Positions 6,178-32,000 of a stretch of DNA of 32,000 bases are shown in pieces. A model generated the notes under the pieces. The model was not told where the DNA came from. It saw only the letters and a program-made list of their open reading frames with translations, and did not search any database. The stretch comes from Plantactinospora sonchi (GTDB lineage Bacteria; Actinomycetota; Actinomycetes; Mycobacteriales; Micromonosporaceae), in the NCBI RefSeq assembly GCF_036422035.1, contig NZ_JAZGQK010000003.1, positions 504,046-536,045 on the forward strand, read 5' to 3'. The translations under genes and the position numbers were made by a program. How positions within the stretch are numbered: position 1 is the first letter of the stretch; each line of letters starts with the position of its first letter.

Positions 6178-6222
6178 CTCTTAATCCGCGGGTTCGGGGT
6201 TCGAGTCCCTGGCGGCGCACCA
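6178..6222 (+). pseudogene. 3' half of tRNA-Lys(CUU): anticodon loop to CCA, with no 5' half (att-like remnant)
   Basis: Reading CTCTTAA TCCGC GGGTT CGGGG TTCGAGT CCCTG GCGGCGC A CCA gives: an anticodon loop with CUU, the 3' anticodon stem, a variable loop, a T-arm (CGGGG/CCCTG, with a TTCGAGT loop), the 3' acceptor strand, the discriminator base and CCA. Upstream sequence cannot pair with the acceptor strand (GCGCCGC is absent) or with the anticodon stem. Confidence 0.65.
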
Positions 6223-7161: not shown

Positions 7162-7264
7162 GGCGGCGCACCACTGAGATAGGCCCTGACCTGGGGTTCC
7201 CCCTGAGTCCGGGCCTTCTTCGTTGTTCCCGGGGTGCTCGGCGCGTGCTCGGAAGTCGTTGGAC
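7162..7264 (+). repeat. repeat copy 2: last 11 nt of the tRNA + degenerate hairpin + 33-nt motif
   Basis: 7162-7198 is identical to 6211-6247, and the 3' arm of the hairpin has decayed. The motif gggtgctcggcgcgtgctcggaagtcgttggac lies at 7232-7264. Confidence 0.8.
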
Positions 7265-16357: not shown

Positions 16358-16760
16358 GCAGTCCTACCGCGGCACGGCAGACACCACGCCTACCACGCAC
16401 ACTGCCGACCCCGCGTCCGCCGCAGTCGAGGTGTGGACCGCCGAACGCCTCCGTGCCCTGGGCGTAACCACCACCCTCGCCACCGCCGCCTCCGTACTCG
16501 GGGTCAGCCGCTCCCAGGCGTACCGGCTCGCCGCCACCGACACCTTCCCCACGCCACTGATCCGGGCCGGCACCCGCATCATCGTCCCAGTCGCCGGCCT
16601 GCTCCAGCTTCTGCTGCTCGAAAGCCCCGCCCCGGCCGCCGACGACCGGCGACTTGATCCCGTCGGCGAGACGAGCGTGGATGCAACGACCAGGCCACCA
16701 GCGGACTATGCCCACCACCGCTGGCGGCACCGCGTCGAGCACCAAGGAGACGATGCGTGA
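16332..16760 (+). CDS. xis: excisionase-like helix-turn-helix DNA-binding protein
   Basis: AGGAG lies upstream of ATG at 16332. The motif WTAERLRALGVTTTLATAASVLGVSRSQAYRLAATDTFPTPLIRAGTRIIVPVAGLLQLL is an excisionase/MerR-like HTH. Its stop overlaps the integrase start (GTGA at 16757-16760). Confidence 0.65.
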   Translation: MSTHLNPTEQSYRGTADTTPTTHTADPASAAVEVWTAERLRALGVTTTLATAASVLGVSRSQAYRLAATDTFPTPLIRAGTRIIVPVAGLLQLLLLESPAPAADDRRLDPVGETSVDATTRPPADYAHHRWRHRVEHQGDDA

Positions 16761-18229
16761 AGGGTTCCACCTTCAAACGTTGCGGCTGCCGCGACACCAC
16801 CTCGGGCCGGCGACTGGGGCGTTCCTGTCCCCAGCTCCACCGGCCCGGCGGTGGCTGGTCCCGCAGCCACGGCCAGTGGCACTGGCAGATCGAAGTTCCC
16901 GCTCGCGCTGACGGGAGTCGCCGGCCGCTGCGGCATGGCCCGTATCCGTCTCAGTCAGATGCCGACGCGGTTCTGGACCGCATCCGCGCCGCGCTCGCCG
17001 TCCCCGACCCCACCGACCCACACGCCACGGTCAAGACCGGCGACCTCATCGAAACCGCCGCCAAGACCGGCGCACCCATACCCACGCCGGATCAGATCCG
17101 CCGGGCGCTGCACCTGGACATCACCCCGACCGAACTGCCGACCCTGGGGGAGTACCTGACCGACTGGCTTGCCGGGCGTAAGAACATCAAGCAGGGCACC
17201 CTGCGCTCGTACGAAGGCCACGTCCGGCTGTACCTGATTCCGTACCTTGGCCACCTGCGCATCGACCGGCTCCGCCCCGGACACATCGACGCGATGTACG
17301 ACGCCATCGACGAACGCAACGCCACCATCGGCACTCTGCGCGCCAGCCGCGACCAAGCTAAGCGGGACCAGGTCAAGCGCCAGCGCATCGTCGGCCCGGC
17401 AACCCAGCACCGCATCCACGCCACACTGCGCAAAGCCCTCAACGACGCGATGCGCCGCCACCGGCTCATCGACACCAACCCCGCCGTCATGGTCGAACTA
17501 CCCCCGGCCCGGCCACCGAAGCCGACCATCTGGACCGACCAGCGCGTCAAGACCTGGCGCGACACCGGCAAGATCCCCAGCCCTGTCATGATCTGGACCC
17601 CCGAACAGACCGGACGATTCCTCGACCACACCCACGACGCCGGCGACAGGCTCTACGCCCTCTACCACCTCGTCACCTTCACCGGCCTCCGCCGAGGCGA
17701 AGCCTGCGGCCTGCACTGGGACAACGTCGACCTCGACGCCGCCACCCTCACCGTACGGTGGCAACTCGTCCAACACGGCTGGGTCACTGCGATCGACACT
17801 CCCAAGACCACCGACAGCGAGGCAGCCGTCGCTCTCGACGCCGAAACCATGGCCGTCCTGCGCGCCCACCGTGCCCGGCAACACCGCGAACGACTCGCGG
17901 CCGGTGCCGCCTGGATCAAGACCGGCCTGGTGTTCACCAACCCGACCGGCGGTCAGCTACACCCCGCCGACGTCACCGACCACTTCCACCACCTCGCCAC
18001 CCAAGCCGGCCTACCACCCATCCGCCTTCATGACCTTCGCCACGGCGCCGCCACCATGGGCCTCGCCGCCGGCGTCCAAATGAAAGTCATCTCCAACCGG
18101 CTCCGCCACTCCAGCCCTCACTTCACCGCAAAGTTCTACGGGGACGTACTGCCGGAGCTCTCTCACGCCGCTGCCGAAGCAACCGCGTCGGTCGTTCCGC
18201 GTCAACGTGGCGTGACATGGCCTACGTAG
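16757..18229 (+). CDS. int: tyrosine-type site-specific integrase
   Basis: The N-terminus KGSTFKRCGCRD...WHWQIEVP is the actinomycete integrase DNA-binding arm domain. Catalytic residues are in context: GLRRGEACGLHW (Arg), HDLRHGAAT (His-x-x-Arg) and RHSSPHFTAKFYGDV (His...Tyr). Confidence 0.9.
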   Translation: MKGSTFKRCGCRDTTSGRRLGRSCPQLHRPGGGWSRSHGQWHWQIEVPARADGSRRPLRHGPYPSQSDADAVLDRIRAALAVPDPTDPHATVKTGDLIETAAKTGAPIPTPDQIRRALHLDITPTELPTLGEYLTDWLAGRKNIKQGTLRSYEGHVRLYLIPYLGHLRIDRLRPGHIDAMYDAIDERNATIGTLRASRDQAKRDQVKRQRIVGPATQHRIHATLRKALNDAMRRHRLIDTNPAVMVELPPARPPKPTIWTDQRVKTWRDTGKIPSPVMIWTPEQTGRFLDHTHDAGDRLYALYHLVTFTGLRRGEACGLHWDNVDLDAATLTVRWQLVQHGWVTAIDTPKTTDSEAAVALDAETMAVLRAHRARQHRERLAAGAAWIKTGLVFTNPTGGQLHPADVTDHFHHLATQAGLPPIRLHDLRHGAATMGLAAGVQMKVISNRLRHSSPHFTAKFYGDVLPELSHAAAEATASVVPRQRGVTWPT

Positions 18230-18649
18230 CCGACGCTGCCTCCGGGAGCCAGCTGGAGGGGCTCCGGACCGAACAGGCTGCCTGCGACGTTCGTGCACGG
18301 CCTCCCAGACAACACCGTCGGCCGCAACTGCCCTGGGAACTGTGTGTTACTCAGGGGCAGGCGGGTCGAGCCTCTACCGGAACCAGCAGTCACAGCGCAA
18401 GTAACCAACAGGGGCGCCGGACGACCAGCGACCTGATTGCCGCCCAACCATCCGCGCGCGCCTGCAGTGGTCGTTCGATCGCTGTGAGTAGGCTTACCGA
18501 CTCGTGGCGCGCCTCAACGGGCCAATATCTCGCTAGCGAGGTGCGCTAGGGTACCCGTCATGCGCCTTCCCGTCAGGATCTTGAGTCATCGACCGTATAG
18601 GCCCAAGGCAGGCGGGAAGCCAGTCGTCGCTGGGCGGGTGGCAGCATAA

Positions 18650-20395
18650 ATGGCCAGCGCTCTGTTGACTGAACTCTACCCTGTTTCGCCGACGAACTTG
18701 CCAGCGGGCTGGGAGCTCAGGCCACTGGGTGAACTGATAACTGATGCGCGCAGCGGCTTCTCATCCGGTTCGCACAATAGCGATGGGGTTGGCATCCCGC
18801 ACTTGCGTCCGATGAATATTGACCGCGATGGCAGTGTAAACCTTAACCAAATCAAGTACGTCTCGGCGGATGCATCTACTCTCCGGCTCCAGCCAGGCGA
18901 CATCGTCTTTAACAACACAAACAGTCGCGAGCACGTCGGCAAGAGTGCCGTCTTCGACTTGGTTGACGCCGAGTGGGGCTTCTCTAACCACATAACTCGC
19001 CTTCGCTTGCACCAAGGGCTTCTACCCCAGTTCGTAGCCTGTCAGCTCCTCTATCTATGGGAGTGTGGATACTTCCGCTTTCATGCGAAGCAGCACGTGA
19101 ATCAAGCGAGCATCTCGACAAGTACGCTGACCAGCCGAGTCCCGCTGCTGGTTGCTCCGCTGTCCGAGCAGCAGGACTTGGTTGACCGTATAGAACGGAA
19201 CCGGTCCATACTTGACTCCATCACTACGGCGGTGGGCGGTGCGCGATCCCGACTCGGTCGTTTCGAAGACCAGACCATCCTTGATGCTATCGCTGGTCGC
19301 CTCGTGCCGACAGAGGCTGAGTTGGCAACGGCGAGGTCGGGCACGTATGTTTCAGGCAGCGAGCTACTCAAAAAGATAAACGATAGAGTAGCCGCCCAAG
19401 CGGGTGAGCTCTTCAATGCAAAGCCGCGGCGTTCATATAAGCGAAGCATCATCGATGTATCCACATCAAATGCTAGTGGTCTTCCCGATGGGTGGGTCCA
19501 GGCGCGGGTGGACGAGGTCGGCCTTGTGACATTAGGCAAGAAGCGGGAACCCAGCTCTCATTCGGGCCCATATATGAGACCCTATCTGCGCGTGGCCAAC
19601 GTCTACGAGGATCGCATCGATGTCAGCGACGTGCTTGAGATGAACTTCCCGCCGCAGGACTACAAGACGTACCGGCTGGAGTATGGCGACATACTCTTGA
19701 ACGAGGGCCAAAGTCCGGAGCTGGTTGGTAGGCCGGCCATGTATCGGGGGGAGCTGCCGGGCGGGTGCTTCCAGATGACGCTGCTTCGGTTCCGTGCGCA
19801 CCCAGGGGTGAGTGCGACGTTCGCTCTCTTGGTTTTTCGTGCCTACTTGCGCACCGGTCGGTTTCGAGAAGCCGCCCGATGGAGTACAAACATCGCACAC
19901 CTTAGTACGCAACGGTTTGCGGCCTTGCCGTTTCCTCTCCCGCCACTGGAGGAACAAGAGCGAATCGTTGAAGAAGCGACGCGGAGGCTTCGTGCTGCGG
20001 AGAACCTTTCGCAGGTGCTTTCGGCGATCGGCGATCGAGTGCTATTGGCCAGGCAAGCTTCCCTTAAGGCCGTCTTTCCTGGGGCAGTTGTTTATGGTGT
20101 CGTTCCCGCCATAGTCGAGGAAGCTGGCCAAAGTGAGTCTTCTCCCACAGGACGGAGCACGGCTCGACGATCACGTGCGGGTGGCCGAAGTGCGACAAGA
20201 GTCGACCTTCTGAAGGCGCTATCCGATGCCGAAACTGCGCTTAGGCCAGAGGAGCTATTCGACGCCTCCGGATATTCGGAGGAACTTATTGATGAGTTCT
20301 ATTCGGACCTGCGCAGACATATCTATTCGGGCAGCGTAAGGGAGGTTCGCGACGCTCATGGCGAGCCATTCCTAAATTTGGCGGAGCGGCAATGA
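18650..20395 (+). CDS. hsdS: type I restriction-modification specificity subunit (HsdS) with an extra C-terminal domain of about 100 aa
   Basis: There are two target-recognition domains (LPAGWELRPLGELI...GDIVFNNTNS and LPDGWVQARVDEVG...GDILLNEGQS). Each is followed by a conserved coiled-coil spacer (PLLVAPLSEQQDLVDRIE; PFPLPPLEEQERIVEEA). Confidence 0.85.
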   Translation: MASALLTELYPVSPTNLPAGWELRPLGELITDARSGFSSGSHNSDGVGIPHLRPMNIDRDGSVNLNQIKYVSADASTLRLQPGDIVFNNTNSREHVGKSAVFDLVDAEWGFSNHITRLRLHQGLLPQFVACQLLYLWECGYFRFHAKQHVNQASISTSTLTSRVPLLVAPLSEQQDLVDRIERNRSILDSITTAVGGARSRLGRFEDQTILDAIAGRLVPTEAELATARSGTYVSGSELLKKINDRVAAQAGELFNAKPRRSYKRSIIDVSTSNASGLPDGWVQARVDEVGLVTLGKKREPSSHSGPYMRPYLRVANVYEDRIDVSDVLEMNFPPQDYKTYRLEYGDILLNEGQSPELVGRPAMYRGELPGGCFQMTLLRFRAHPGVSATFALLVFRAYLRTGRFREAARWSTNIAHLSTQRFAALPFPLPPLEEQERIVEEATRRLRAAENLSQVLSAIGDRVLLARQASLKAVFPGAVVYGVVPAIVEEAGQSESSPTGRSTARRSRAGGRSATRVDLLKALSDAETALRPEELFDASGYSEELIDEFYSDLRRHIYSGSVREVRDAHGEPFLNLAERQ

Positions 20396-21933
20396 GGCTT
20401 GAGAGTCTGTATATCCGGTCTTGGAAGAATCTGCAAGATTTTGAAATCCACTTCTCGGATGTTCAGACTACCGTGCTGGTGGGACAGAATGGAACAGGGA
20501 AGTCAAATGTACTGGAAGCCCTGATCATAATTTTCCGGGATCTAGACCTTGGAGCGCCTCCGCTCTTTGCGTTCAAACTTGCCTACCGATGCAAGGGCAA
20601 GTCAATCCGCGTGGATTGCGATCCGGCACGTCGGGGCCGCACTGCCCTTATTGAGGTCGACGGTGAACGGTGGCGTGCTGATCGATTCTCCCGTAAGGGA
20701 GGCGGGGAGTACCTTCCTGGTTTTGTTTTTGGCTACTATTCAGGCCCGAGCAATCGAATGGAACGGCACTTCGAAAGCCATCAGATCCGTTTCGCAAGCG
20801 ATCTCCGTGAAGGAGCAGACAGGCCTCTCCGCCCATTGCTATACGCGCGCCTTGTTCACAGCCAGTTCGTTCTGCTGTCCTTCTTCGCTCGCGAATCCGG
20901 TGACCGTGAAGTTCTCACACGCTTCCTGCGAATTGTGGACCTTGATTCGGTATTGTTCGTCCTAAAAAGGCCGTCATGGTTCAACCCGAACAGAGGCGCA
21001 GACCCTACGAACCCAGGGGACCCCCGGATCTGGGGTGCACGCGGCGTGGTGCGTGACTTCGCCTCTCGCCTGTACCGTATTGCATTAGCGCCTATGCGGG
21101 GACGCCGGGGCTCTGAGCGCCTCTACCTGTATCTGAAAGACAAGAAGGACTTGCTTGCCCTTGCTGACGGCTACGATAACCAGGCCGAATTCTTCAAGGC
21201 ACTTGAGAGCTTGTATATATCTGATCTAATCGAGGATGTTCGAACCCGGGTCACCATAAGTGGCAGCGATGATGCTCTTACGTTTCGCGAGTTAAGCGAG
21301 GGCGAGCAGCAGCTCCTGACGGTATTAGGTCTGCTTAGGTTTGTAGAGGGTCAGGAGGGGCTCATTCTGCTTGATGAGCCCGACACGCATCTGAACCCGT
21401 CCTGGAGCTTGGACTACACCTATCTCCTGAAGACACACGTGTCTGATCCAGATTCAGCCAATATCGTGATGGCCACGCACGACCCGCTGGTTGTGTCGGC
21501 ACTTACCCGCGATGAAGTCCGCGTAATGAGACGAGGCGAAGCGGACAGGATCCATGCAGCGGTTCCTGAAGAAGATCCTAAGGGCATGGGTGTGGCCGGC
21601 CTTCTGACGAGCGAGCTCTACGGGCTGAGATCGCAACTCGATCGAGAGACACTCAACGCGCTGGATCGCAAGCGCGACCTAGCATCGCTCGACACGTTGA
21701 CGCCAGAGCAACGCGCCGAGTTGTCGTCACTCAATGAGTATCTGGCTAACCTTGACTTTTCGAGGACCACCCGCGATCCGCTCTACAAGCCCTATGTCTC
21801 GGCTATGACCGTACTGGAAAATCACCTTGCCTTGCGGAAGGCTACTTTAACGCCGGGGGAGATCGACCGGCGGCAAGAGTTAGCCAACGAAGTGGTCCGA
21901 TTGCTGCTTGAAAGGCTGGAGGCGGAGCCGTGA
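20392..21933 (+). CDS. ptuA: ABC/AAA_21-type ATPase, Septu PtuA-like
   Basis: Motifs: Walker A GQNGTGKSN, ABC signature LSEGEQQLL, Walker B/D-loop LILLDEPDTHLNP and H-loop MATHDP. Its ATG overlaps the hsdS stop (ATGA). It is followed by an HNH gene, as in Septu. Confidence 0.7.
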   Translation: MRLESLYIRSWKNLQDFEIHFSDVQTTVLVGQNGTGKSNVLEALIIIFRDLDLGAPPLFAFKLAYRCKGKSIRVDCDPARRGRTALIEVDGERWRADRFSRKGGGEYLPGFVFGYYSGPSNRMERHFESHQIRFASDLREGADRPLRPLLYARLVHSQFVLLSFFARESGDREVLTRFLRIVDLDSVLFVLKRPSWFNPNRGADPTNPGDPRIWGARGVVRDFASRLYRIALAPMRGRRGSERLYLYLKDKKDLLALADGYDNQAEFFKALESLYISDLIEDVRTRVTISGSDDALTFRELSEGEQQLLTVLGLLRFVEGQEGLILLDEPDTHLNPSWSLDYTYLLKTHVSDPDSANIVMATHDPLVVSALTRDEVRVMRRGEADRIHAAVPEEDPKGMGVAGLLTSELYGLRSQLDRETLNALDRKRDLASLDTLTPEQRAELSSLNEYLANLDFSRTTRDPLYKPYVSAMTVLENHLALRKATLTPGEIDRRQELANEVVRLLLERLEAEP

Positions 21934-22754
21934 TCTTCATCGATCTAGTCAGGCTTGAGCAGCGGGTGGAGTTGTCATGGAAGGAAAAAGCTGCGGCGGC
22001 GCTTCTTGACGTCCGTGCTGCAACGACAAGCGACGATCGCAAGAAGGTTTTGACCAAGCACGCAAGTCTCTGGGCGGAAGTAAAGCATCATTTGGCGGGG
22101 GCGAGCACAGGCAAGTGCTGGTACTGCGAAACTCGGGACGTGCGGTCCGATGCTGCAGTTGATCACTTTCGTCCGAAGAGTAAGGTCGAGGAAAGCCCGG
22201 AACACGAAGGTTATTGGTGGCTTGCCTTCGATTTCCGCAATTATCGTTATTGCTGCACTTTCTGTAACTCAACCCGTGTGGACCGTGTGGGCGGCAGTAG
22301 AGGCGGTAAGCAAACGCACTTCCCCCTTCTAAACCCAGAGGACCGTGTCTTCGAGGAGGGTGATATTGCGGTCGAACGCCCGATGTTGTTGGACCCGATA
22401 CGAGCTACGGACCCGGCCCTTCTGTACTTCCGGGAAGATGGCGTTCCTGAGCCAAGGTACGGGGGCGAAAAAGGATTACGAGCGAGCAAGTCTATTGAAA
22501 TTTACCACCTTAATCACACGGAACTCGTAGAAGCGCGTCTTGAAACGCTGAATCGGGTCCGGGAGTTGATTTCTCTTGGTAGAAGATACTATGATAGCTG
22601 GCTCCTCGACGGATCGGACGAGCCTGCTTTTGAATCCGTCATCGCCCAACTCAAGAAGCTCTGTGCCCCAGGGGCCGAGTATTCCGCAGCGGTCAGGGAC
22701 TTGGTAAAAGGTTATCGAGATTCTGAGCATACGTGGATCGACCAAGTTTTCTGA
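21930..22754 (+). CDS. ptuB: HNH endonuclease, Septu PtuB-like (TIGR02646-type)
   Basis: CWYCE...DHFRPKS...YRYCCTFCNSTR forms a Cys4 + His-Asn-type HNH core. Its GTG overlaps the ptuA stop (GTGA at 21930-21933). Confidence 0.7.
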   Translation: MIFIDLVRLEQRVELSWKEKAAAALLDVRAATTSDDRKKVLTKHASLWAEVKHHLAGASTGKCWYCETRDVRSDAAVDHFRPKSKVEESPEHEGYWWLAFDFRNYRYCCTFCNSTRVDRVGGSRGGKQTHFPLLNPEDRVFEEGDIAVERPMLLDPIRATDPALLYFREDGVPEPRYGGEKGLRASKSIEIYHLNHTELVEARLETLNRVRELISLGRRYYDSWLLDGSDEPAFESVIAQLKKLCAPGAEYSAAVRDLVKGYRDSEHTWIDQVF

Positions 22755-22770
22755 TAGAAAGAACGAGTAG

Positions 22771-24267
22771 ATGAGTAGCGCCCGAGACATCGTTCAGAAG
22801 CTTTGGAGCTATTGCAGTATTCTGCGGGATGACGGCCTGTCCTACCCTGACTACGTCGAGCAGTTAACGTACTTGCTCTTCCTCAAGATGGCACACGAAA
22901 CTGCCACGACTCAGAGCGGCGTTAATATTGTACCGAACGGTATGGACTGGCCGAGCCTTGTGGAACGCCGGGGGGATGATCTCCACCGACACTACGGTGA
23001 AATCCTGAAAACTCTAGGCGCCTCTGATGGGATGCTGGGCTTAATCTTCCGCGACTCTCGGAATAAGATTAAGGACCCACATAAGCTGCGGCTGCTCGTT
23101 GCGGATCTTATCGATGCTAGGCATTGGAGTGCGCTCGATATAGATGTGAAGGGTGATGCTTACGAGGGCCTGCTCGAAAAAAACGCCCAAGACACCAAAA
23201 GTGGCGCCGGTCAGTACTTCACGCCGCGACCCGTTGTAGACGCTATTGTTGAGTGCATTGACCCGAAGCCGGGGGAAAAAATCCTTGACCCTGCATGCGG
23301 AACCGGGGGCTTCTTAATTTCGGCCGCTCGTCATCTCAGGATGCGCAATCCGGACATGACGCCGACGGAGGAAGAGCACCTACGTCTGCACGCTATTCGG
23401 GGAGGGGAGCTGGTAGGTGAGGTTACGCGGCTTGCTGCCATGAACCTCCTTCTCCACGGCATAGGTCCGAACGCTGGCACAGCCGAGCCGCCGGTGGCAA
23501 CACAAGACAGCCTTGCAGTCCCGCCGAAGGAACTGTACGACGTCATCATCACGAACCCGCCTTTCGGGAAGCGCTCGAGCGTAACTCTTGTGACGAAGGC
23601 TAAGGAAGGTGACGATGAGCGCCGTCGTGTGCTGCGCGATGACCTATGGGTCTCGACTTCGAACAAGGAGCTGAATTTCCTCCAGCATGTTGCGGTGAGC
23701 TTGTCGCAGGGTGGGCGGGCCGCAGTTGTTGTTCCTGACGGCGTTCTCTCGGGTCCTGGAGCGGGTTCTGCAATCAGAAGGCGGCTACTCGAAACATTCG
23801 ACGTCCATACGCTTCTGCGGCTGCCTGCTGGCATTTTCTATGCGGCAGGAGTGAACGCGAATGTTCTCTTTTTTGATCGCAAGTCGCCTGGTCAAGGCTC
23901 GGAGCGAGGACGCTTGTGGGTATACGATTTGCGCACAGATAAGCGATTCACGCTAGTAGGTCGTCGCCTGAGCTCCGCTGACTTGACAGAGTTCACGAGA
24001 CTTTATGAGCCGGCGGATCGTGCGAAGCGGGAGGACTCAAGGGCGGAGGATCCGGTAGGCGGTAGGTGGCGAAGCTTTAGCGTCGATGACATACTCAAGC
24101 GGGAAGATTGCAGCCTGGATCTGTTTTGGCTTCCGTCGCAAGGCAACGCTATGGCGACTCAGAACTTTGACGAGATTGTAGGCGATCTTGTGGCTGATTT
24201 GCAGTTTGCGTTGGCCGAGGCTGCGAAGCTCATGCCAGGGGACGAGAGGCGCAGGGAAGAGCGGTGA
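22771..24267 (+). CDS. hsdM: type I restriction-modification N6-adenine DNA methyltransferase (HsdM)
   Basis: HsdM N-terminal domain (IVQKLWSYCSILRDDGLSYPDYVEQLTYLLFLKM), SAM-binding motif I (ILDPACGTGGFL) and catalytic motif IV (ITNPPFG). Confidence 0.9.
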   Translation: MSSARDIVQKLWSYCSILRDDGLSYPDYVEQLTYLLFLKMAHETATTQSGVNIVPNGMDWPSLVERRGDDLHRHYGEILKTLGASDGMLGLIFRDSRNKIKDPHKLRLLVADLIDARHWSALDIDVKGDAYEGLLEKNAQDTKSGAGQYFTPRPVVDAIVECIDPKPGEKILDPACGTGGFLISAARHLRMRNPDMTPTEEEHLRLHAIRGGELVGEVTRLAAMNLLLHGIGPNAGTAEPPVATQDSLAVPPKELYDVIITNPPFGKRSSVTLVTKAKEGDDERRRVLRDDLWVSTSNKELNFLQHVAVSLSQGGRAAVVVPDGVLSGPGAGSAIRRRLLETFDVHTLLRLPAGIFYAAGVNANVLFFDRKSPGQGSERGRLWVYDLRTDKRFTLVGRRLSSADLTEFTRLYEPADRAKREDSRAEDPVGGRWRSFSVDDILKREDCSLDLFWLPSQGNAMATQNFDEIVGDLVADLQFALAEAAKLMPGDERRREER

Positions 24268-24418
24268 TGCTGCGACGGCCCTTGTCCTGTCTATGGCTGC
24301 CGACCGGCGCCCCGCAGGAGGCGGTGATCCGTCGGCTGTCGGCTTCCGTTGACGGCAGCGGTCACCGCGTAGTGAGTAGAGCCGGATGGAGCGAGATCCG
24401 CACATGCGGTTCGGGAGG

Positions 24419-24474
24419 CAGGCGGCAAAAGCAGACGGGCGGGGTGCTCTGCGGGTGCTCGGGACGCGTTGGAC
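24419..24474 (+). repeat. repeat copy 3: CAGGCGGC + 33-nt GGGTGCTC..CGTTGGAC motif (no hairpin)
   Basis: gggtgctctgcgggtgctcgggacgcgttggac (24442-24474) matches copy 1 at 29/33 positions and copy 2 at 28/33. It is preceded by ggttcg-N7-ggcggc, the same spacing as the T-loop/acceptor of the tRNA fragment at 6198-6216. Confidence 0.6.
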
Positions 24475-24698
24475 GGGCATGGCCGTCGAGGGCCTGTGCT
24501 GTATGCGTGTGGGCGTGGGAGTCAGGCCGAACTGGTGACTCTGTGCGGACCGGGTGTGTCGGAGTTGCTGGTCCAGGTGAGCTTCCTGGGGTGGCATGCG
24601 CAAAGTCCGCTGGTCGAGAGAGCACGTGGGTCACCAAGACTCGCCTGCCGCTCGGCGGCTGCCTTGGCCGATCGGGCAAACCGGCCAGGGGTGTTTCC

Positions 24699-26309
24699 TC
24701 ATACCGCTGCCGCTTGGGCGATGTCCTTCGGGCAGATGGAGCGCAGAGGGCAGGTGCCGCAGGCGGGCGTGCCTGGTCCGCACCAGCGTCGTCCGATCAG
24801 CCAGGCGGGGTAGTCCAGCTCTCCGGGCCGCTCTGGGTGTAGCCATCGCGCGACCTCCACCATGTGGTCGAGGTCGTCGCGCTCGGCGAGTCGTGTACGG
24901 AGGAATACCCGCCGAACATGTACGTCGTAGGCGATGTCCGTCCCGGACAGCTCCCGGATTGGCACTGCCAGGTCGCGGGCCAGGATCTCTACTGCCATCG
25001 CTGACTTCTTCTGCGCGATGCCGGGGAACCTCCGCAGCCGGGTGGCCAGATCGGTCGCGCGGGGTTCGTCCGCCCAGATCCGGCCGGCGTCGCCGCCATA
25101 TTCGTTCACGACGATGATGGCGGCGGCGACCAGCCATCCGGGCATGTTGTTGATGAACCGATGCAGTGCCGTCGGCTGGGCGACGGCAGCACGTACCTGC
25201 TCTGGTTCGGACGCCATTCGTGCTGGGTCGAGGTGTCCGAGGCGCTGATGCAAGTCGTACGGTGCCTTCCAGGCCCGCTCGGCGGGTATGCCTTGGTCGA
25301 AGATGACAGCCAGCAGGAACGCGAACGGGTCGGTCAGGATCAGCGTGTTGGCTTCGGGGTGCGGTGTGAATCGGGGTGGGGTGCCGGCCCGTTCGGCCTG
25401 ATGTTCCCGCCCGTACTTCAGCAGGGCAGTGACGATGGCACGCGCATCTGGTCGGACGGGAACGGGTGTGCCGGTGGGTGCGAGCGGCCGGATGGTCTCC
25501 TGGGGCTGCTTGATGAGGGCTACGGGTTGTTCTGGCGCTGGTGGTTGGGGCTGCCGGTCGTACCAGGCGAGCTGTTCGCCGAGCGGTAGCCCGGCCAGCG
25601 GTCGGCGAACCGCCGCTCCGGCCTGGGTGAGCAGTGGCACGATTGCTTGCGCGTATTCGTCGCCGGCGTGGATTTCGACCACGCGGTCGCGCACCTGGCT
25701 CTCTGCGCGCATCAGCTTGGCCGCGACCCATTGGCCCCATACGCGCCGGTAGTCCTTGCTCTGCTCGGCGAACGCGGTGTCGTACGGTGCGAGCACCGTC
25801 TCGGGCAGCACCAAGCCGTCCTCGGCGCTCAGGATGTAGTAGCGGCGGGCGTGCCGTTCGGCGTAGGCGCGGCGGCGGATGAACAGCGGCGAGACGTACA
25901 GGTCGCGGGCCGGCGCAGGGTGGTCGAGTTTCGTCTTGACGCAGCCGACCAGCGCGATGTCGGCCCGGATCTCGCCAGGCTCGGTCGGCCTTGATTGTCC
26001 GCTTGGGGGCTGCGCCGGGATCGCCGGCTGGGCTGTGGAGGAGGGCGATCGGCTGGTGTCGGCGAGCGTGTACCGGCCGCGCCCGACCCGGATGAGCGGC
26101 GTCCCGCACGGGCTCGACGGGCCACCGGTGGTATCCCGGGTCATTCCCTGGATGACCGGGCCGAGCGACTGTACGCGCTGCGTCGGGTCGAGCCGTTGGA
26201 CCTCGTCGATCAGCTCCGCTCGGCTGAAGTCGAACTTGTGTTTCGTGAGCTGGCGTGCTGCGGTGAGGATGAGCTGCCAGGCCGGCTGGTCCGTCACTGT
26301 CGCTTCCAT
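24699..26309 (-). CDS. fusion protein: N-terminal wHTH-like module + DUF6884-like domain + EndoIII-type HhH-GPD domain with a [4Fe-4S] cluster loop
   Basis: Central part: IALVGCVKTKLDHPAPARDLYVSPLFIRRRAYAERHARRYYILSAEDGLVLPETVLAPYD (DUF6884-like, from memory). C-terminal part: an HhH element (LRRFPGIAQKKSAMAVEIL), YDVHVRRVFLRTRL (compare VDTHIFRV of EndoIII) and CGPGTPACGTCPLRSIC, which is exactly Cx6Cx2Cx5C. Confidence 0.7.
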   Translation of the reverse strand: MEATVTDQPAWQLILTAARQLTKHKFDFSRAELIDEVQRLDPTQRVQSLGPVIQGMTRDTTGGPSSPCGTPLIRVGRGRYTLADTSRSPSSTAQPAIPAQPPSGQSRPTEPGEIRADIALVGCVKTKLDHPAPARDLYVSPLFIRRRAYAERHARRYYILSAEDGLVLPETVLAPYDTAFAEQSKDYRRVWGQWVAAKLMRAESQVRDRVVEIHAGDEYAQAIVPLLTQAGAAVRRPLAGLPLGEQLAWYDRQPQPPAPEQPVALIKQPQETIRPLAPTGTPVPVRPDARAIVTALLKYGREHQAERAGTPPRFTPHPEANTLILTDPFAFLLAVIFDQGIPAERAWKAPYDLHQRLGHLDPARMASEPEQVRAAVAQPTALHRFINNMPGWLVAAAIIVVNEYGGDAGRIWADEPRATDLATRLRRFPGIAQKKSAMAVEILARDLAVPIRELSGTDIAYDVHVRRVFLRTRLAERDDLDHMVEVARWLHPERPGELDYPAWLIGRRWCGPGTPACGTCPLRSICPKDIAQAAAV

Positions 26310-29300
26310 TCAGGGGCCGGTCGCAGGTCCAGGATGTCGGGTACGCCCGCCGCGCCGGTCTCTCGTCCTCGGAGCAGGTTCAGCAGGTCCTCCTGCCTGG
26401 GCTGGCCGAACGCCAGCCGGTACATCACCAGGTCCGACTTGAGCCGGTCGAGTTTCGCCTGGTCGCGGCTGAGTGGGTACGGCAGGACGTGCCGTTCGAT
26501 CTTCGCTGGCCCGGGGAACACCCAGTACGGCGCGAAGTCGCCAAGCTCTCCAGAGACCGCTCGTGCCGCGTCGTACAGGGCCTTCCACACGTCCGGCTCG
26601 CGGGAGCGCAAGGCCTCAGCGCGGTGTGCGGCGGCGACGTTGCGGCGTACGGCGTGCCCGCCGAACCGGTGCACTCGGCCCTCACGCTGCTCGAAGTCGA
26701 CGGGGTTGGCGGGGGTGTTCCAGTGCACGACGGCTGAGCACCACTGGTGGAAGTCGATGCCTTCCTGGCCGGCGCTGGTGGTGGCGACAACGAACGGCCA
26801 GAACGGGCTGTTGAAGGCTCGACGGACGGCCTCCTTGCGGTTGACCTGGGATTGTTCCTCGCCGCGGCCGCCGTAGCGCAGCGCGAACCGGCCGGGCAGT
26901 TTGATCCGCTCGTCGGGGTGGTGCGGGTTGAAGGCTTCGTACGTCGACGGTCGACTGGCGATCGCCTGCCGCGCCTCGTCGGCGAGCCGGCAGAGTTCCT
27001 CGTCGTCGAGGCGGGTGTCGGCAGCACCGCTGCGCAGGGTGTGCAGGTGCTCGTCGAGGACGGCCTGCAGACCGCCGGCGGCGCAGTACCGCAGCACCGC
27101 CCGCCAGTAGACCGAGCCCATCGACAGGCCGTCGAGCAGCTGCGCGGATTCCGGCCGGTTGAAAAGAGACCGCAGCCCGTTCGCCAGGACCGCCGCGGCG
27201 CGCCAGTGCCCTGCGGGTGTGACCGCATCGCCGGGGTGGATCAGCCGGGACAGTGCCCGCCAAGCAATGTTGCCCGGCCCATGCAGGCCGATCTCCGCGA
27301 CGCTGCCGAGCAGACCGTCGAGATGGTCCGTTGCCGGGTAGCGGGCATCGCTGGCCAGCTCGCGGACTCGCGCCACGTGCCGGTCCAGGCCGGTGGCCGT
27401 TCCGTCCTCTTCGGCCGAGGTGCCCAGGGCGGCAGCGGCGTCGTCTAGGCCGGGGTCGGCGCCGGGCCACCGGAAGACCAGCTCCCACGGCTCGGCCGGG
27501 CTCGCTTCGATGGCCTCCGCATCGCCCGAAGCGCGAGCAAGCAGCCGTTCCCGCACCTCGCGTTCGAACACGTCGAGCGGTGCGGTCTCGTCGGGCCGTC
27601 GGCGGGCCAGGGCCAGCGGATCGCACAGCGCGGCCAAAGCGGGATGGGGCCAGAACAGCGCCAAGACGCTCATCGCCGCCGGTCGGCCGTGTTCCAGTCG
27701 GTAGTCGAGATGCCGGTGCCCTTCCCCGGCGGCGCCGAGCCGGCGTTCGGCTTCGTAGCTGAGTAGCCCTGCCACCGCGGTGGGTGTGGCGTTCCAGGAC
27801 GAGAACAGCAGCCGCTTGGTGATGCCGTCCCGCGCTGCGGTGGTGAACGGCTCGCCGAGCGCGTGGTAGGGCATGGATGGGGGCAGCCACAGCAGTCGCC
27901 ACCAGCCCTGGTCGACGGTGTCGGCGGCGAGCTGCCGGAGCCGGGCGTTGCCGAGATCGACCAGTTCCCGTCGGTTGATCGCCTCGGCATCGAGCAGCTG
28001 GGTGGAGGCCAACAGCGCGGACACCTCGGGGTGCGGCTGGCCGTCGAGCGCGGCGCGAACCTTGTCACCGAGCTGGTAGCCGTCGAGGAAGTTGAGGAAG
28101 TACGGGGCGGACTTCCAATACTCGACCGTCATCGGAGCGCCGACGACACCGGCAATCTTGCGCATCGCCACGTAGCTGCGGACATCACGCACGTCGAGGT
28201 CATCGGCCACGGTGAGGTGCTCCCGCAGCATGCCATCCTGCATCAGCGCGGGCCGTTCCGTACGACACATGACCCGCAGCAGCAGGCCGCGCAGCCAGTC
28301 GCGCAGGTCACCGCAGGGCTCGCCGCGCACCAGCGCGTCCCGGTACGCCTCGAACGCCTTCGTCACGTCGGCGTGCCACGACTCGTCGTCGCTGAGGAAC
28401 CTCAGCACCTGCCGGAAGTCGCGGTAGTGGTCCTCGCCGGCGGTGGCCTCCTCGGCGAAGGTGAACGGCTTGTACGGGGTGGCCGACAGCAGCAGCACCC
28501 GGGCGGCCCGGTAGTCGAACAGGTGTCGGGCGAGGTCGGCGCCCTCGCCGCCGTGGGGGTCTAGCAGCTCCCGAAACCGTTGGAACTCGTCGAGGATGAT
28601 CAGGTCGGGTTCGAGAACCTCGACGCCGGCGGTCGCGAGCGTGGTCCGGAGAGCACCGGTGAGCGTGCGTGCCGTTTCCCGTAGTGCGTCCGGTAGGGCG
28701 GGGCGGCGGCCGATGCCGTCGAGCAGCGCGTCGAATTCGTGGAGCAGGCCACGTCGGCGGGCGCGGCGGAGGAACTCGCGGGTGATGGTGTGATCGAGCT
28801 TTCCGTCGAGCTGCGCCCATAGCCGGTTGCACTGTTCCTCGAACCGGCCGGGGCTTGCGACGCCGGCCTGCAGGGCGCGTAGCGCGGCCCGGGTCCGCCA
28901 ACCGTTCCATGAGCTCGCCTGTTCGAGGATCAGGAACAGCAGCGCCCGTTCCTCGGCCGTACCTGTGCGCCACCCCTGGTCGAACGAGGTGCCCGGGGTG
29001 AACGCCACCAGGTTGATCGGCTTGCCCCCGGTGGTGGGTGCGGCGTTGAGCTGGTCGGCGTGCTTGGCGAGCAGGGTGAGCCGGCTGGAAAGCGTGACGG
29101 TTTCGTCGGGGGTGACCCGGAGCCGGGCGATGTTCTGCCGGGCGACATCTTGGTTGGAGCAGACGTAGACGACGTCGACCCGGTCCACGCTGTCGTCGTC
29201 CTGCAACCGCTGCAAGGTCTCAGCGATGACGCCTCGGGCGACGACGCTCTTGCCGAGCCCGGTCTCGTCGGCGACCAGGAACCGGCGAGTCGGATCGGTG

Positions 29301-29389
29301 CCGAAAAACCGGTCGATCACGTGCGCGACGGTGGCGCGTTGGAAGTCTTTTAAGCCGGCCATGACCGGCCCGGCGTCGTACCAGTTCAC
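26294..29389 (-). CDS. SF2 helicase, SNF2/RapA-like
   Basis: Motif I is FLVADETGLGKS, motif II LIILDEFQRF, motif III LLLSATPYKP, and motifs V-VI are VVATTSAGQEGIDFH...FEQREGRVHRFG. The preferred start is GTG at 29389, which overlaps the PLD stop (GTGA). The ORF is open to 29440. Confidence 0.85.
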   Translation of the reverse strand: MNWYDAGPVMAGLKDFQRATVAHVIDRFFGTDPTRRFLVADETGLGKSVVARGVIAETLQRLQDDDSVDRVDVVYVCSNQDVARQNIARLRVTPDETVTLSSRLTLLAKHADQLNAAPTTGGKPINLVAFTPGTSFDQGWRTGTAEERALLFLILEQASSWNGWRTRAALRALQAGVASPGRFEEQCNRLWAQLDGKLDHTITREFLRRARRRGLLHEFDALLDGIGRRPALPDALRETARTLTGALRTTLATAGVEVLEPDLIILDEFQRFRELLDPHGGEGADLARHLFDYRAARVLLLSATPYKPFTFAEEATAGEDHYRDFRQVLRFLSDDESWHADVTKAFEAYRDALVRGEPCGDLRDWLRGLLLRVMCRTERPALMQDGMLREHLTVADDLDVRDVRSYVAMRKIAGVVGAPMTVEYWKSAPYFLNFLDGYQLGDKVRAALDGQPHPEVSALLASTQLLDAEAINRRELVDLGNARLRQLAADTVDQGWWRLLWLPPSMPYHALGEPFTTAARDGITKRLLFSSWNATPTAVAGLLSYEAERRLGAAGEGHRHLDYRLEHGRPAAMSVLALFWPHPALAALCDPLALARRRPDETAPLDVFEREVRERLLARASGDAEAIEASPAEPWELVFRWPGADPGLDDAAAALGTSAEEDGTATGLDRHVARVRELASDARYPATDHLDGLLGSVAEIGLHGPGNIAWRALSRLIHPGDAVTPAGHWRAAAVLANGLRSLFNRPESAQLLDGLSMGSVYWRAVLRYCAAGGLQAVLDEHLHTLRSGAADTRLDDEELCRLADEARQAIASRPSTYEAFNPHHPDERIKLPGRFALRYGGRGEEQSQVNRKEAVRRAFNSPFWPFVVATTSAGQEGIDFHQWCSAVVHWNTPANPVDFEQREGRVHRFGGHAVRRNVAAAHRAEALRSREPDVWKALYDAARAVSGELGDFAPYWVFPGPAKIERHVLPYPLSRDQAKLDRLKSDLVMYRLAFGQPRQEDLLNLLRGRETGAAGVPDILDLRPAPEWKRQ

Positions 29390-31137
29390 GCGCGCACCGT
29401 CCCCGTGATCGTCTCGCGTGCCGCCGTGATGACCCGCCACAGATCGGAAAAGCCCGCAGGCAGCAGTCGTTTGCTGTCACCTCTGGCTTCGATTCGGGCC
29501 ACCAACCGGGCCAGGTCGTCGAGCTGGTCCGGCCGGTCGACGAGGGCGTTGAGCAGCAGCTCGAGGATCCCGGTCCCGCCGGCGCGCCAGGCACCCGACC
29601 CGCCGGTGTCGCCGCCTGCGGCGGCGGCAGCCTCGGTGCCCAGGCCGAGGATCAGCAGCAGAAATCGCAGGAACTTCTCCGGGGTGTCGATCTGCTGGGC
29701 GAGGACGTGGTCGAGCCGGTGCGCGGGGTCGCCGATCAGGGTGGCGAGGACGACGGTCTGCTCTCGGCCGGTGGTGTCCTCGGCGGTGATGACGATGAAC
29801 GGGGTGATGTCGGCCAGCGCAAGTCCGGTGAACACGGCAGCCACCGGCTGCCCCGCCACGAGCGGCACCGCCTCACCGCGACGGGTGTGCACCTGCGCGG
29901 TGATCCGCACCCCCGGCAGATCGGGCAGGGCGTCCTGTGAGGTGAGCTCGATGCCGTAGCTGTCGGCTTCGGTGGTGACGGTGGCCGTCAGTGGGATGGC
30001 CGCGATGTCGCGGATCAGGTCCCGCAGCATGGTCGTTTCCGGCTCCGACTCGGTGGCATCGTGGCGGTCGTAGGGTTCGAGGATTCCGCGGAGACCTGCT
30101 TCCGGGCCGAGGACGGCGTTGATGCCCCACTGGGCGCGGCTGCCGGCCAGTTCCACCAACAGTTCGACGTTTCCGCCGAACGCCGCGTCGGTGGCGTTCG
30201 CGGAGCCGAGCAGGACCCGTGCCTGGTGGCCCTTCTCCACCACGTACACCTTCGCGTGCAGCCCGTGCAGCACCTCCTGGCCCGACGGCGTCCCCTCGGC
30301 GGGCAGACCGGCCAGGGCGCTGACCACGAACGCCTCCAACCCCGCCACCGTCTCCTCAGGTAGGCAGTCGAGGGTCTCCTGCCGGCTCACCAGGGCCAGC
30401 TGCCCGCTCGGTGCGCACCGGTCCAGCCCGCCCGGCGTGCAGAACGGCGAGATGACGAGGTGACGCGTGCCCTCGAAACGTGGCAGGCGAACACCGGGCA
30501 CGCCCAGCGCGTGGAAACTCATCTCCCGGGCTCTGTCGGGGAGTTCCCACTGGGCCCGGCGCAGGTCCTCGTTTAGCGCCTCGATCGCCGCCTGCCGGTC
30601 CGGCGGTAGTGGCGCGACCGCCAGCCGCACCGCATGCCGCAGGAGATCAGACAGCGGCCGGTTGTCCGCCTTCGGCCGTGGGCCGATAACACCGTCCAGA
30701 CGCAGGCACACATCCCAGCTGCGATCCTTGGTCAGGTTCCGGCTGAGCACCAGCAGCCGCAGGGACGTCTCGCCGGTTGTCTCGTCGTGGAAGCGCAGCG
30801 CCCACACCTTCGGGTGGAACAGGTGCCCGGGCTTGGGCCGGCGTACCTGGTGCACCATGGGCTCGACGAACGCCAGCAGCGCGGACTTCGTCGGGGGCAC
30901 GGCGATCTGCCCCGCTTGGCAGAACACGTCAATGCGGTCGGCGCAGTACCGTACGCCCTCCATCACCGTGATCGGGTCCGTCGACTCCCGCATACCGTGG
31001 GCGGCGAAGGCCAACGGGGCGACCAGCAGGCTCTCCAGGTCCAGGGTGAACGTCAACGCCACGGCTCGGGACAGTCGCGCGCCCGCTGGTGGGCGCAGCG
31101 CGTCAAGCAGCAGGGCGCGGGAGTCAGGCGCGAGCAC
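29386..31137 (-). CDS. phospholipase D-family (two HKD motifs) putative nuclease
   Basis: HKD 1 is LFHPKVWALRF...LLVLSRNLT. HKD 2 is GLHAKVYVVEKGHQARVLLGSANATDAAF. The ORF is open to 31242. GTG at 31137 gives a 14-nt overlap with the upstream gene rather than 119 nt. Confidence 0.8.
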   Translation of the reverse strand: MLAPDSRALLLDALRPPAGARLSRAVALTFTLDLESLLVAPLAFAAHGMRESTDPITVMEGVRYCADRIDVFCQAGQIAVPPTKSALLAFVEPMVHQVRRPKPGHLFHPKVWALRFHDETTGETSLRLLVLSRNLTKDRSWDVCLRLDGVIGPRPKADNRPLSDLLRHAVRLAVAPLPPDRQAAIEALNEDLRRAQWELPDRAREMSFHALGVPGVRLPRFEGTRHLVISPFCTPGGLDRCAPSGQLALVSRQETLDCLPEETVAGLEAFVVSALAGLPAEGTPSGQEVLHGLHAKVYVVEKGHQARVLLGSANATDAAFGGNVELLVELAGSRAQWGINAVLGPEAGLRGILEPYDRHDATESEPETTMLRDLIRDIAAIPLTATVTTEADSYGIELTSQDALPDLPGVRITAQVHTRRGEAVPLVAGQPVAAVFTGLALADITPFIVITAEDTTGREQTVVLATLIGDPAHRLDHVLAQQIDTPEKFLRFLLLILGLGTEAAAAAGGDTGGSGAWRAGGTGILELLLNALVDRPDQLDDLARLVARIEARGDSKRLLPAGFSDLWRVITAARETITGTVRA

Positions 31138-32000
31138 CAGCAGCCTCCGGCAGGTCGGCGGCGCAGCCGTCGTGGATGTCGGCGAGGATCCGGCGTACCT
31201 GCGGCCACCGGAACACCAGTTGCCGGCTGCCCGACGCGCCACTCCACGTGCGGAGCAGCTTGTCGTTGACCAGCCGCGACTGGCCCTTCTTCACCGACCG
31301 TTCCCGCTCGGCCACGAGAGCCCGCAGGCCTGGGTCGATGGCCGCATCACCGGCTGCTCCGCTGGTCACCGCGTCGAGCCACCGCTCGATGAACCGGTGC
31401 GCCGCCGCGTTCGTGGCGATTCGCGGGTTCTGCTGGATCAACCGGCTCCACATCCCCGACCGCTCCCAGCCCTTGAGGCCGGGCAAGGCCGACACTCGAT
31501 CACTCCACTTCCGCAGGGCGTCGCGGTACACGTCCGTCGGGTTCTCGTGCTCGGTCAGACCAGCTTGTTCGTACCGCTCGGCCACGAGCAGGTTGTACAG
31601 CAACGCTGCGCCATGCATCGCCAGCGAGAAGCGCTGCGCGTCCCGGACCAGCGAACCGACCGGCTCCGGCGCGGCGAGCGCCGCCGGCTCCCACGGCACT
31701 TGGCCGTCGGTAACCGGCCGATGCTCGGGTTGGAGCAGGTACGCCAACAGTGTGGCCGGCGCTGCGGCAAGAAGCCTCTCCCGCAGCCAGCGGGCCTCCT
31801 GCGGATACAGCGTCAGTCCGCCGTCGACCTCATTCGGGAAGTTCGCCGGTGCTCCTGGCATCGTCGGCTGCCAGGCACCGCTCGACTGGTCGGCCAGTTC
31901 ATCGGCCTCGGACGAACCGGAAGTCACCCGTCGGCCCGGGGTGTCGTCGTCACCCGTGCGGATGCCGTACCGCAGCAGCGCCGCCGCGTAGATGGCCGAT
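31124..32000 (-). CDS. hypothetical helical protein, first visible gene of the PLD-helicase operon (5' end outside the window)
   Basis: The frame stays open from 31124 to the window edge (SAIYAAALLRYGIRTGDDD...), so the GTG at 31927 is not necessarily the start. Third-position G/C is high throughout. I recognise no family motif (RLVNDKLLRTWSGASGSRQLVFRWPQVRRILADIHDG at the C-terminus). Confidence 0.6.
   Translation of the reverse strand, partial: SAIYAAALLRYGIRTGDDDTPGRRVTSGSSEADELADQSSGAWQPTMPGAPANFPNEVDGGLTLYPQEARWLRERLLAAAPATLLAYLLQPEHRPVTDGQVPWEPAALAAPEPVGSLVRDAQRFSLAMHGAALLYNLLVAERYEQAGLTEHENPTDVYRDALRKWSDRVSALPGLKGWERSGMWSRLIQQNPRIATNAAAHRFIERWLDAVTSGAAGDAAIDPGLRALVAERERSVKKGQSRLVNDKLLRTWSGASGSRQLVFRWPQVRRILADIHDGCAADLPEAAGARA

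Follow-up and report, generated by a model that had tools for sequence, protein, structure and literature searches.

A Septu-type PtuAB pair in a conserved module with a type I methyltransferase core and an optional HsdR

When a Septu-type pair of ATPase and nuclease genes sits inside a type I restriction-modification (RM) locus that lacks the restriction gene, hsdR, do the genes form one unit, and what could such a unit do? This question is raised by a 32-kb stretch of the Plantactinospora sonchi genome (contig NZ_JAZGQK010000003.1, positions 504,046 to 536,045; hereafter, the window, always in its full length), in which the specificity gene hsdS and the methyltransferase gene hsdM enclose ptuA and ptuB in the order hsdS-ptuA-ptuB-hsdM. 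The arrangement is genuine and has biological meaning: comparison with related loci supports the conclusion that the four genes are inherited together as a single conserved module, which occurs both with and without hsdR.

All four genes lie on the plus strand. The first, hsdS (18650..20395), encodes a type I specificity subunit of 581 amino acids (aa) with two target-recognition domains (TRDs); it matches Pfam Methylase_S and PADLOC Specificity_I (1.5e-67), and the Specificity_I models align over two stretches, 15-195 and 273-518. It is followed by ptuA (20392..21933), encoding a 513-aa ABC-type (AAA_15/AAA_21) ATPase (Pfam AAA_21, 3e-17; AAA_15, 4e-13) that matches the PADLOC PtuA model over its full length (PDLC00293, 1.6e-171), and by ptuB (21930..22754), encoding a 274-aa HNH nuclease with a full-length match to the PADLOC PtuB model (PDLC00330, 2e-84) and a match to NCBIfam PtuB that is under the cut-off (4.8e-11). 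The last gene, hsdM (22771..24267), encodes a 498-aa N6-adenine DNA methyltransferase subunit (PADLOC MTase_I, 2.3e-162; Pfam N6_Mtase, 5.4e-61, and HsdM_N), in which the motifs DPACGTGGF and NPPF (motif IV) are both present. At the junctions, the TGA of hsdS overlaps the ATG of ptuA (ATGA), the TGA of ptuA overlaps the GTG start of ptuB (GTGA), and a 16-nt gap precedes the ATG of hsdM. An initial annotation, made from the letters of the window, had described this run of four co-directional genes with its two overlaps and gap, and had called PtuA and PtuB a Septu-like ATPase/HNH pair; the list of open reading frames (ORFs) and our reading of the junctions bear out the exact coordinates, and the full-length PADLOC matches confirm the identity of the pair. 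The top NCBIfam match of PtuA, under the cut-off, is TIGR04435, "restriction system-associated AAA family ATPase", which shows that ATPases beside restriction genes have been noted in annotation for a long time.

Together with a conserved leader of ~150 nt and a trailer of ~70 nt, the genes make up a low-G+C cassette (18499..24339, plus strand), with G+C of 0.54-0.58 in the four genes (~56% over the cassette) versus 0.66-0.70 in the flanks (68% DNA). Over this entire interval, the cassette aligns as a single blastn block, 91.9% identical, with a copy in Solwaraspora sp. WMMD1047 (locus L001), the PtuA of which is 97% identical.

More distant relatives were collected by a PtuA alignment scan of GTDB (one genome per species), which confirmed at least 531 relatives (of these, the 80 best loci were kept), and from IMG/VR viral contigs and PLSDB plasmids; the contexts of close relatives were taken from exact-protein look-ups of close PtuA homologues. 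Among the best 80 GTDB loci, PtuA identity is 39-54%, and the phyla include Chloroflexota, Acidobacteriota, Planctomycetota, Bacteroidota, Bacillota, Actinomycetota, Verrucomicrobiota, Cyanobacteria and Pseudomonadota, with the archaea Methanosarcina and Methanoperedens also among the carriers. Altogether, we obtained about 100 related independent loci from more than 15 phyla, with archaea, plasmids and prophages among them. Denoting hsdR, hsdM, hsdS, ptuA and ptuB as R, M, S, A and B, further carriers of the S-A-B-M order are two Bradyrhizobium assemblies, a Methylobacterium prophage, Sphingomonas and several metagenome contigs; in the close S-A-B-M relatives, no hsdR was found within about 8-10 kb. 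A metagenome scan for close relatives returned 9 loci, one of them close (L089), and a scan of a phage collection returned nothing useful. The two Bradyrhizobium loci (L002 and L003) share an identical cassette and right flank and have different left flanks (a LysR fragment versus guaA), which indicates a recent rearrangement or insertion on the hsdS side.

The collected loci were annotated with purpose-built hidden Markov models (HMMs) for R, M, S, A and B, and non-redundant loci were considered evaluable when hsdR was found or when at least 5 kb upstream was free of hsdR. The evaluable loci comprise 22 with the order M-S-A-B, 22 with R-M-S-A-B, 15 with S-A-B-M, 11 with R-S-A-B-M and a single one (L072) with A-B alone; that is, this PtuAB clade occurs without hsdS and hsdM in 1 of ~70 evaluable loci. 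Wherever hsdS is present, ptuA lies directly 3' of it, whichever the gene order (S-A-B-M or M-S-A-B). The S>A junction is overlapping in 72 of 90 loci, by 4 nt in 49 of these, and the overlap is kept in both gene orders; the A>B junction is overlapping in 78 of 93 loci. Conservation of the nested order had been set beforehand as a test of the proposed unit, and hsdS-ptuA-ptuB next to hsdM recurs in ~100 loci; the same gene set and order in that many independent loci is more than chance.

Is HsdR truly missing, and how general is its absence? Apart from a helicase on the opposite strand, no ORF of HsdR size is present in the window; a tblastn comparison of 10 verified HsdR proteins with the window (E<=1e-3) gave no match, and neither did an HsdR profile HMM. 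The claim of the initial annotation that nothing in the window has HsdR features is thus upheld by ORF size, tblastn and HMM alike. The search covered 18.6 kb upstream and 7.7 kb downstream of the cassette, and hsdR was not found around the 92-97% identical Solwaraspora copy either. The opposite-strand helicase had been set apart from the module and labelled SNF2-like; it is indeed separate, and the label gives way to ZacC (26294-29440, minus strand; PADLOC E=0), which belongs to another candidate defence system and is not part of the cassette.

Across the family, about half of the loci have hsdR directly upstream, and the rest lack it; whenever hsdR occurs, its position is immediately 5' of hsdS or hsdM. 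All 14 large upstream ORFs that were tested are genuine HsdR (ResIII and EcoEI_R_C, with or without HSDR_N). The large ORFs downstream of R-less cassettes were ruled out as HsdR, being NACHT proteins, TonB receptors, HD-CE and others. In a neighbour-joining tree of PtuA, loci with hsdR (R+) and without it (R-less, R-) are interleaved, which implies many independent losses of hsdR; being R-less is a derived condition that has recurred. The locus of the window falls in a monophyletic clade of ten, in which every locus is R-less. The proposal that PtuAB substitutes for HsdR fails when taken generally, because an EcoEI-like hsdR adjoins the module, directly upstream, in about half of the loci.

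The R-less units are not generally decayed and are not simply broken restriction systems: HsdM is intact in 37 of 39 R-less loci, PtuA in all 39 and PtuB in 38. The complete 70-kb conjugative plasmid NZ_CP012741 of Vibrio vulnificus carries Fic-M-S-A-B, with no HsdR anywhere on it, and plasmids of Pantoea and Roseomonas carry R-less S-A-B-M; a Pseudoalteromonas plasmid has the order R-Abi-M-S-A-B. Given that R-less loci with all four genes intact occur in many lineages, including a complete plasmid, the module evidently persists without a linked HsdR.

Several loci contain additional or different genes. The Roseomonas plasmid (L128) encodes a MarR-family regulator (3222-3704) that overlaps the start of hsdS, and the V. 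vulnificus plasmid (L118) encodes a Fic/DOC protein (4624-5703) directly 5' of hsdM; these genes may be lineage-specific regulators or additional cargo. In two IMG/VR loci (L106 and L111), the gene after R-M-S encodes an ABC ATPase of another kind, which is longer (596-605 aa) and scores only ~280 bits against the PtuA HMM, and no PtuB was detected there; this ATPase may represent another cargo family after hsdS.

The family is also set apart by a change in HsdS itself, which has gained a family-specific C-terminal extension that goes with PtuAB. In the window, alignments delineate a basic (Arg/Lys-rich) linker (aa 497-519; 20138..20206, plus strand), which has low predicted local distance difference test (pLDDT) scores, that is, appears disordered, in the AlphaFold2 (AF2) model; the linker leads into a domain (aa 520-577; 20207..20380, plus strand) recognized by the AF2 model and by a tail HMM. 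The modelled tail consists of three helices followed by a beta-hairpin, with pLDDT of about 90, and is predicted to fold as a winged helix; Foldseek retrieved generic winged helix-turn-helix folds such as Fur, MarR and H1, and comparison with Pfam gave no family and only a weak hint of HTH_11. A conserved domain of ~60 aa after a basic linker is characteristic of the family HsdS: the tail HMM matches 93 of 97 family loci, always within the hsdS ORF that abuts ptuA, and the four misses are loci without any hsdS, so that all 93 hsdS genes encode the tail. It also matches 4 of 5 plasmid loci that were kept out of its building, and it matches none of 6 control HsdS from the nearest HsdM relatives, which have other cargo or none. 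A search of a large protein database with a 75-aa tail profile yielded short fragments only and is unusable for counting tail-bearing HsdS, because its word filter favours short proteins; two of the stand-alone "tail" proteins in that database were looked up, and both are pieces of broken hsdS overlapping or abutting a PtuA-type gene.

Could all this reflect a favoured insertion site? The nearest PtuAB-less plasmid relatives of this HsdM have the layout R-S-[cargo]-M, with hsdR upstream in all (L121, L122, L125, L126 and L127), and between S and M they carry HIRAN plus a hypothetical protein, DUF262 (GmrSD-like), GIY-YIG, two hypothetical proteins, or nothing. From this variety, the S/M gap emerges as a slot open to cargo in general, which agrees with the embedding described by Payne et al. 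There is, however, evidence that goes beyond mere embedding, namely, co-inheritance, the near-absence of solitary PtuAB and the cargo-specific HsdS tail. The distances among PtuA proteins correlate with those among HsdM proteins (Mantel r=0.47, reached by 0 of 999 permutations; 0.61-0.65 within one architecture), which indicates that the module is inherited as a unit. The catalytic motifs are maintained as well: motif IV of HsdM, NPPF, is present in all 87 family members, Walker A, Walker B and signature motifs are found in all 94 family PtuA or nearly so, and in PtuB, the columns KCW..E, DH-F-R-P-K, N and N are invariant in 85 homologues. The motifs of M, A and B are conserved alike in R+ and R-less loci.

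What, then, might the module do? The reading that we favour, tentatively and at slightly less than an even chance, is one integrated defence module in which a Septu-type PtuAB effector is guarded by an HsdM2-HsdS1 (M2S1) core, with HsdR optional. We favour this guard model because the known partners of PtuAB and of other ABC-ATPase effectors (retron, EcoprrI, Ronin) restrain or sense. In outline, M2S1 would methylate the bipartite sites of the host and would hold PtuAB latent, possibly tethered via the winged-helix tail of HsdS. PtuAB would be released or activated upon perturbation of M2S1, for example, by phage DNA-mimic anti-restriction proteins, or upon engagement of foreign DNA, and the activated PtuAB would cut nucleic acid, aborting the infection. 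HsdR, where it is kept, would provide ordinary type I restriction as the first line, and in the R-less form, the methylase core would be mainly a bait or regulator, that is, a Ronin/PrrC-like guard with a Septu effector.

To gauge specificity turnover, we divided HsdS identity by HsdM identity for each of a set of disjoint sister pairs. The median of this ratio is 0.56 in R+ pairs (n=10) versus 0.79 in uniformly R-less clades (n=7; one-sided Mann-Whitney p=0.002), with the caveat that the samples are small and that two R-less pairs join very closely related loci; in the R-less loci of a mixed R+/R- Bacteroidota clade, the ratio is 0.54. Specificity turnover thus seems to slow once hsdR is permanently lost. 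The slower HsdS divergence in R-less clades fits relaxed selection for new specificities, and, as far as such sequence comparison goes, leans toward the guard model.

Apart from the sample size, several points weigh against the guard model. Within the Bacteroidota clade, TRDs are swapped just as often where hsdR is missing as where it is present, and the invariant NPPF of R-less HsdM is no less compatible with a methylation-dependent mechanism than with a decoy. In 5 of the 10 members of the window's R-less clade (L089, L113, L114, L115 and L116), the reading frame of hsdS is disrupted, through a frameshift, an in-frame stop or an insertion sequence (IS). In these loci, ptuA, ptuB and hsdM are intact, with the exception of L114, which is riddled with IS elements, and all five retain the C-terminal piece of hsdS that adjoins ptuA. 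Intactness of hsdS was judged by the number and length of ORFs and by tblastn frames, HMM coverage being misleading because the TRDs are too divergent. Broken hsdS genes would be odd if full-length HsdS were needed to restrain a toxin; the breaks may reflect real inactivation, phase variation or, in some cases, long-read assembly errors. Finally, we infer the tethering of PtuA by the HsdS winged helix from co-occurrence only, and this domain could equally bind DNA.

The main alternative to the guard model, possible although rather improbable, is that PtuAB is the nuclease arm of methylation-directed restriction. In that case, M2S1 would mark self DNA by methylation and, at unmethylated bipartite sites, would recruit or activate the SMC/Rad50-like PtuA, whereupon PtuB would cut; HsdR would be a redundant second arm, often lost. 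The recurrent loss of hsdR is what such redundancy predicts, the invariance of HsdM motif IV in 37 of 37 R-less loci and of the PtuA and PtuB catalytic motifs agrees with it, and the TRD mosaicism that continues in R-less Bacteroidota loci suggests that specificity still matters; TRD2 of locus L077, for instance, is 65-70% identical to that of the window, at a PtuA identity of 43%. Moreover, HsdR-free systems of methylase, ATPase and nuclease exist (MADS, MANTIS), and Escherichia coli Septu PtuAB is reported to cut DNA (as cited in PMC11555353). Yet, half of the loci keep a complete HsdR beside PtuAB; in long-standing R-less clades, HsdS evolves nearly in step with HsdM, unlike in active restriction systems; several R-less relatives have a disrupted hsdS and yet retain ptuAB; and the known effector partners (retron, PrrC, Ronin, PARIS) are restraints or sensors rather than site-specific targeting modules. 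It is similarly doubtful that HsdM2S1, via the HsdS tail, would act as a sequence-specific loader or activator of a PtuA6B2 nuclease, in a self-sufficient new class of RM systems, widespread in bacteria and archaea and borne by plasmids, prophages and integrative elements, in which type I recognition and methylation are combined with an SMC/Rad50-like ABC ATPase and an HNH nuclease that replace the HsdR translocase. If the restriction reading were true, it would represent a new way to build a restriction enzyme.

The opposite view, that PtuAB is an autonomous Septu carried as uncoupled cargo in a type I slot, with hsdR lost and M+S orphaned or decaying, we consider unlikely. It draws on the unrelated cargo, or none, in the S/M gap of the nearest HsdM relatives, in line with the published embedding, on the disruption of hsdS in half of the window's clade (5 of 10), which includes the IS-riddled L114, and on the A-B pair that stands alone at L072. 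That pair, however, is the only solitary one among ~70 evaluable loci, and decay of M+S is at odds with HsdM being intact in 37 of 39 R-less loci and with the intact R-less four-gene unit across Actinomycetota, Alphaproteobacteria and Gammaproteobacteria plasmids. Furthermore, uncoupled cargo would leave unexplained a winged-helix HsdS tail that occurs only with this PtuAB (93 of 93 versus 0 of 6), an S>A overlap conserved in both orders and the correlated trees of PtuA and HsdM. Least probable, in our assessment, and indeed very improbable, is an ordinary complete type I system with an embedded Septu and with its hsdR at another site in the genome. In type I systems, hsdR is at times not next to hsdMS, and the window, which covers only 32 kb, leaves room for a distant gene, a point that also counts against the guard model. 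In E. coli, 23% of the genomes that bear Ronin have a type I system elsewhere (bioRxiv 10.1101/2023.04.06.535777). Against a distant hsdR, this gene, where present in the family, is always directly upstream; none is found 18.6 kb upstream or 7.7 kb downstream of the cassette, nor around the Solwaraspora copy; the cassette is a discrete low-G+C import, with homology ending 72 nt after hsdM; and an R-less unit resides on a complete plasmid.

Should the guard model hold, the guard logic of Ronin and PrrC would extend from E. coli curiosities to a family in hundreds of species, archaea included. PtuAB would in that case appear as a portable effector open to restraint by different sensors, and the winged-helix tail of HsdS would offer a handle on the communication between a methyltransferase core and an embedded effector. 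Current pipelines label these loci as "Septu" plus orphan M/S and so miss the unity of the four genes.

As to its setting, the low-G+C cassette is probably cargo of a ~17-kb actinomycete integrative element, placed at the end that carries the integrase, and adjoins a Zac system. The tyrosine integrase of the carrying element (16757..18229, plus strand; Pfam Phage_integrase, 1.5e-17, and Phage_int_SAM_3) shows 86.7% DNA identity to its counterpart at the same position in Solwaraspora, and the homology between the two genomes spans a Replic_Relax gene, the integrase and the cassette, ending 72 nt after hsdM. A repeat search and blastn-short revealed three copies of the 33-nt direct repeat GGGTGCTCnnCGnGTGCTCGGnAnnCGTTGGAC, at 6289-6321, at 7232..7264 (candidate attL) and at 24442..24474 (candidate attR), the last of these 175 nt past the hsdM stop. 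Because the latter two copies bracket a 17.2-kb segment containing a radical-SAM ORF, the Replic_Relax gene, the integrase and the cassette, they are probably the att sites of an integrative element resembling actinomycete integrative and conjugative elements (AICE-like). A 56-nt repeat (6211-6266 and 7162-7217) and the first two 33-nt copies have a common spacing of about 945 nt, which suggests a tandem remnant. No tRNA was found within the window.

On the other side of the cassette, separate candidate defence genes on the minus strand (24699..31927; Pfam and PADLOC) encode a DUF6884/DUF7669 protein (DUF6884, 3.8e-46; PADLOC PDC-M57A), ZacC, ZacB (1.4e-170) and a partial ZacA (2.1e-64); the cassette and the adjoining Zac genes are a small defence island. 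A second low-G+C patch (56-59%) lies at 3000-6000 of the window. There, an ORF on the minus strand (4742-5482) weakly matches the Caudovirus prohead protease family Peptidase_S78; its neighbours showed no family matches.

How does the module compare with known systems? It has the HsdM and the two-TRD HsdS of type I RM, with no HsdR in the window, and for want of this subunit it falls outside the definition of a type I RM system. Septu was reportedly described by Doron in 2018 as PtuA plus PtuB. As in type I Septu, an ABC-type ATPase gene with the expected motifs is followed by an overlapping HNH nuclease gene; canonical Septu, however, is an autonomous two-gene system, whereas this PtuAB clade is bound to hsdS and hsdM. 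The similarity of PtuA to the solved PtuA (structure 8EE4) is distant (E=1.6e-6 over about 70 residues), and PtuB has no match among PDB sequences. In Retron-Eco7 (retron type I-A, or Septu type II), PtuAB is restrained by a module of reverse transcriptase (RT) and msDNA. There, as here, a PtuAB effector and a separate sensor or restraint module share one operon, but the partner in our case is a type I methyltransferase core rather than RT and msDNA. HsdMS would thus become the third type of partner module for PtuAB, beside none and RT-msDNA. Retron type I-A as the identity of this locus was rejected, given that Pfam detects no RT domain in the neighbouring ORFs and Rfam gives no match in 16000-25500.

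Among the systems built around methylation, MADS and MANTIS combine a methylase, ATPases and a nuclease without HsdR and, as in the module described here, join methylation self-marking to ATPases and a non-HsdR nuclease; HsdM and PtuA weakly resemble MAD2 and MAD3, respectively. Both identities were rejected: the NCBIfam scores are far under the cut-offs (MAD2, 132.8 bits versus 720; MAD3, 28.9 versus 420), and the operon contains none of the mandatory components MAD6-8 and MtsA-D. WonAB (PMC12137116), a pair of an ABC ATPase and a PD-(D/E)xK protein with no methylase, was rejected as well. Defence genes, Septu included, are known to be embedded in methylation-based systems (Payne et al., bioRxiv 10.1101/2024.01.29.577857); in that survey, Septu is common inside the methylation-based Hma, and embedded genes are co-oriented. 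The varied cargo in the S/M slot of our HsdM lineage follows the same pattern. However, the survey required complete host systems, so that R-less units would go unscored, and neither an obligate link between a PtuAB clade and hsdMS nor an HsdS domain specific to the cargo is described in it.

The closest parallels are systems in which a type I complex holds an effector in check. PrrC, an anticodon nuclease, is embedded in the type IC hsd locus EcoprrI, with the reported order R-S-PrrC-M, and is found almost only embedded; the restriction complex keeps PrrC latent, and EcoprrI masks it until Stp arrives. Here too, an effector with an ABC-ATPase module is placed after hsdS in a type I locus. This position is all that the window shares with EcoprrI: PrrC has its ATPase module and its anticodon-nuclease domain in one polypeptide and works with a complete enzyme of R, M and S, whereas the ATPase and the HNH nuclease are separate proteins in our module, and HsdR is missing from the window and from about half of the PtuAB relatives. 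Ronin, described as "decoy immunity", consists of hsdS and hsdM without hsdR and a linked toxin, RonA, a 61-aa transmembrane effector, and its neighbours often include an integrase and further defence systems (Silas et al., bioRxiv 10.1101/2023.04.06.535777). HsdMS sequesters RonA until Ocr, ArdA or Aop1 appears, and the cell death so triggered is independent of methylase activity (bioRxiv 10.1101/2023.04.06.535777). Our locus resembles Ronin in its type I M+S pair without a linked hsdR beside a tightly linked effector, although restraint as such is known for Ronin. It differs in that the effector is a two-protein ABC ATPase plus HNH nuclease set between hsdS and hsdM, in that half of the PtuAB family keeps hsdR, and in the extra winged-helix tail of HsdS; by the ORF list, with no direct comparison to the RonA sequence, only ptuA and ptuB lie inside or abut the cassette.

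The suggestion of the initial annotation that the arrangement would be mechanistically new is therefore only partly right: the principle of an R-less HsdMS with an embedded effector is known from Ronin and from PrrC (the latter cited in that annotation), the embedding of Septu in methylation-based systems is known too, and hsdR is often kept. A literature search, with most subscription journals outside its coverage, found no paper on an hsdS-ptuA-ptuB-hsdM unit or on the HsdS tail. Compared with the known systems, what is apparently new is a PtuAB clade that is tied to hsdMS and widely distributed, the half of this clade that lacks hsdR, and the cargo-specific winged-helix tail that its HsdS carries.

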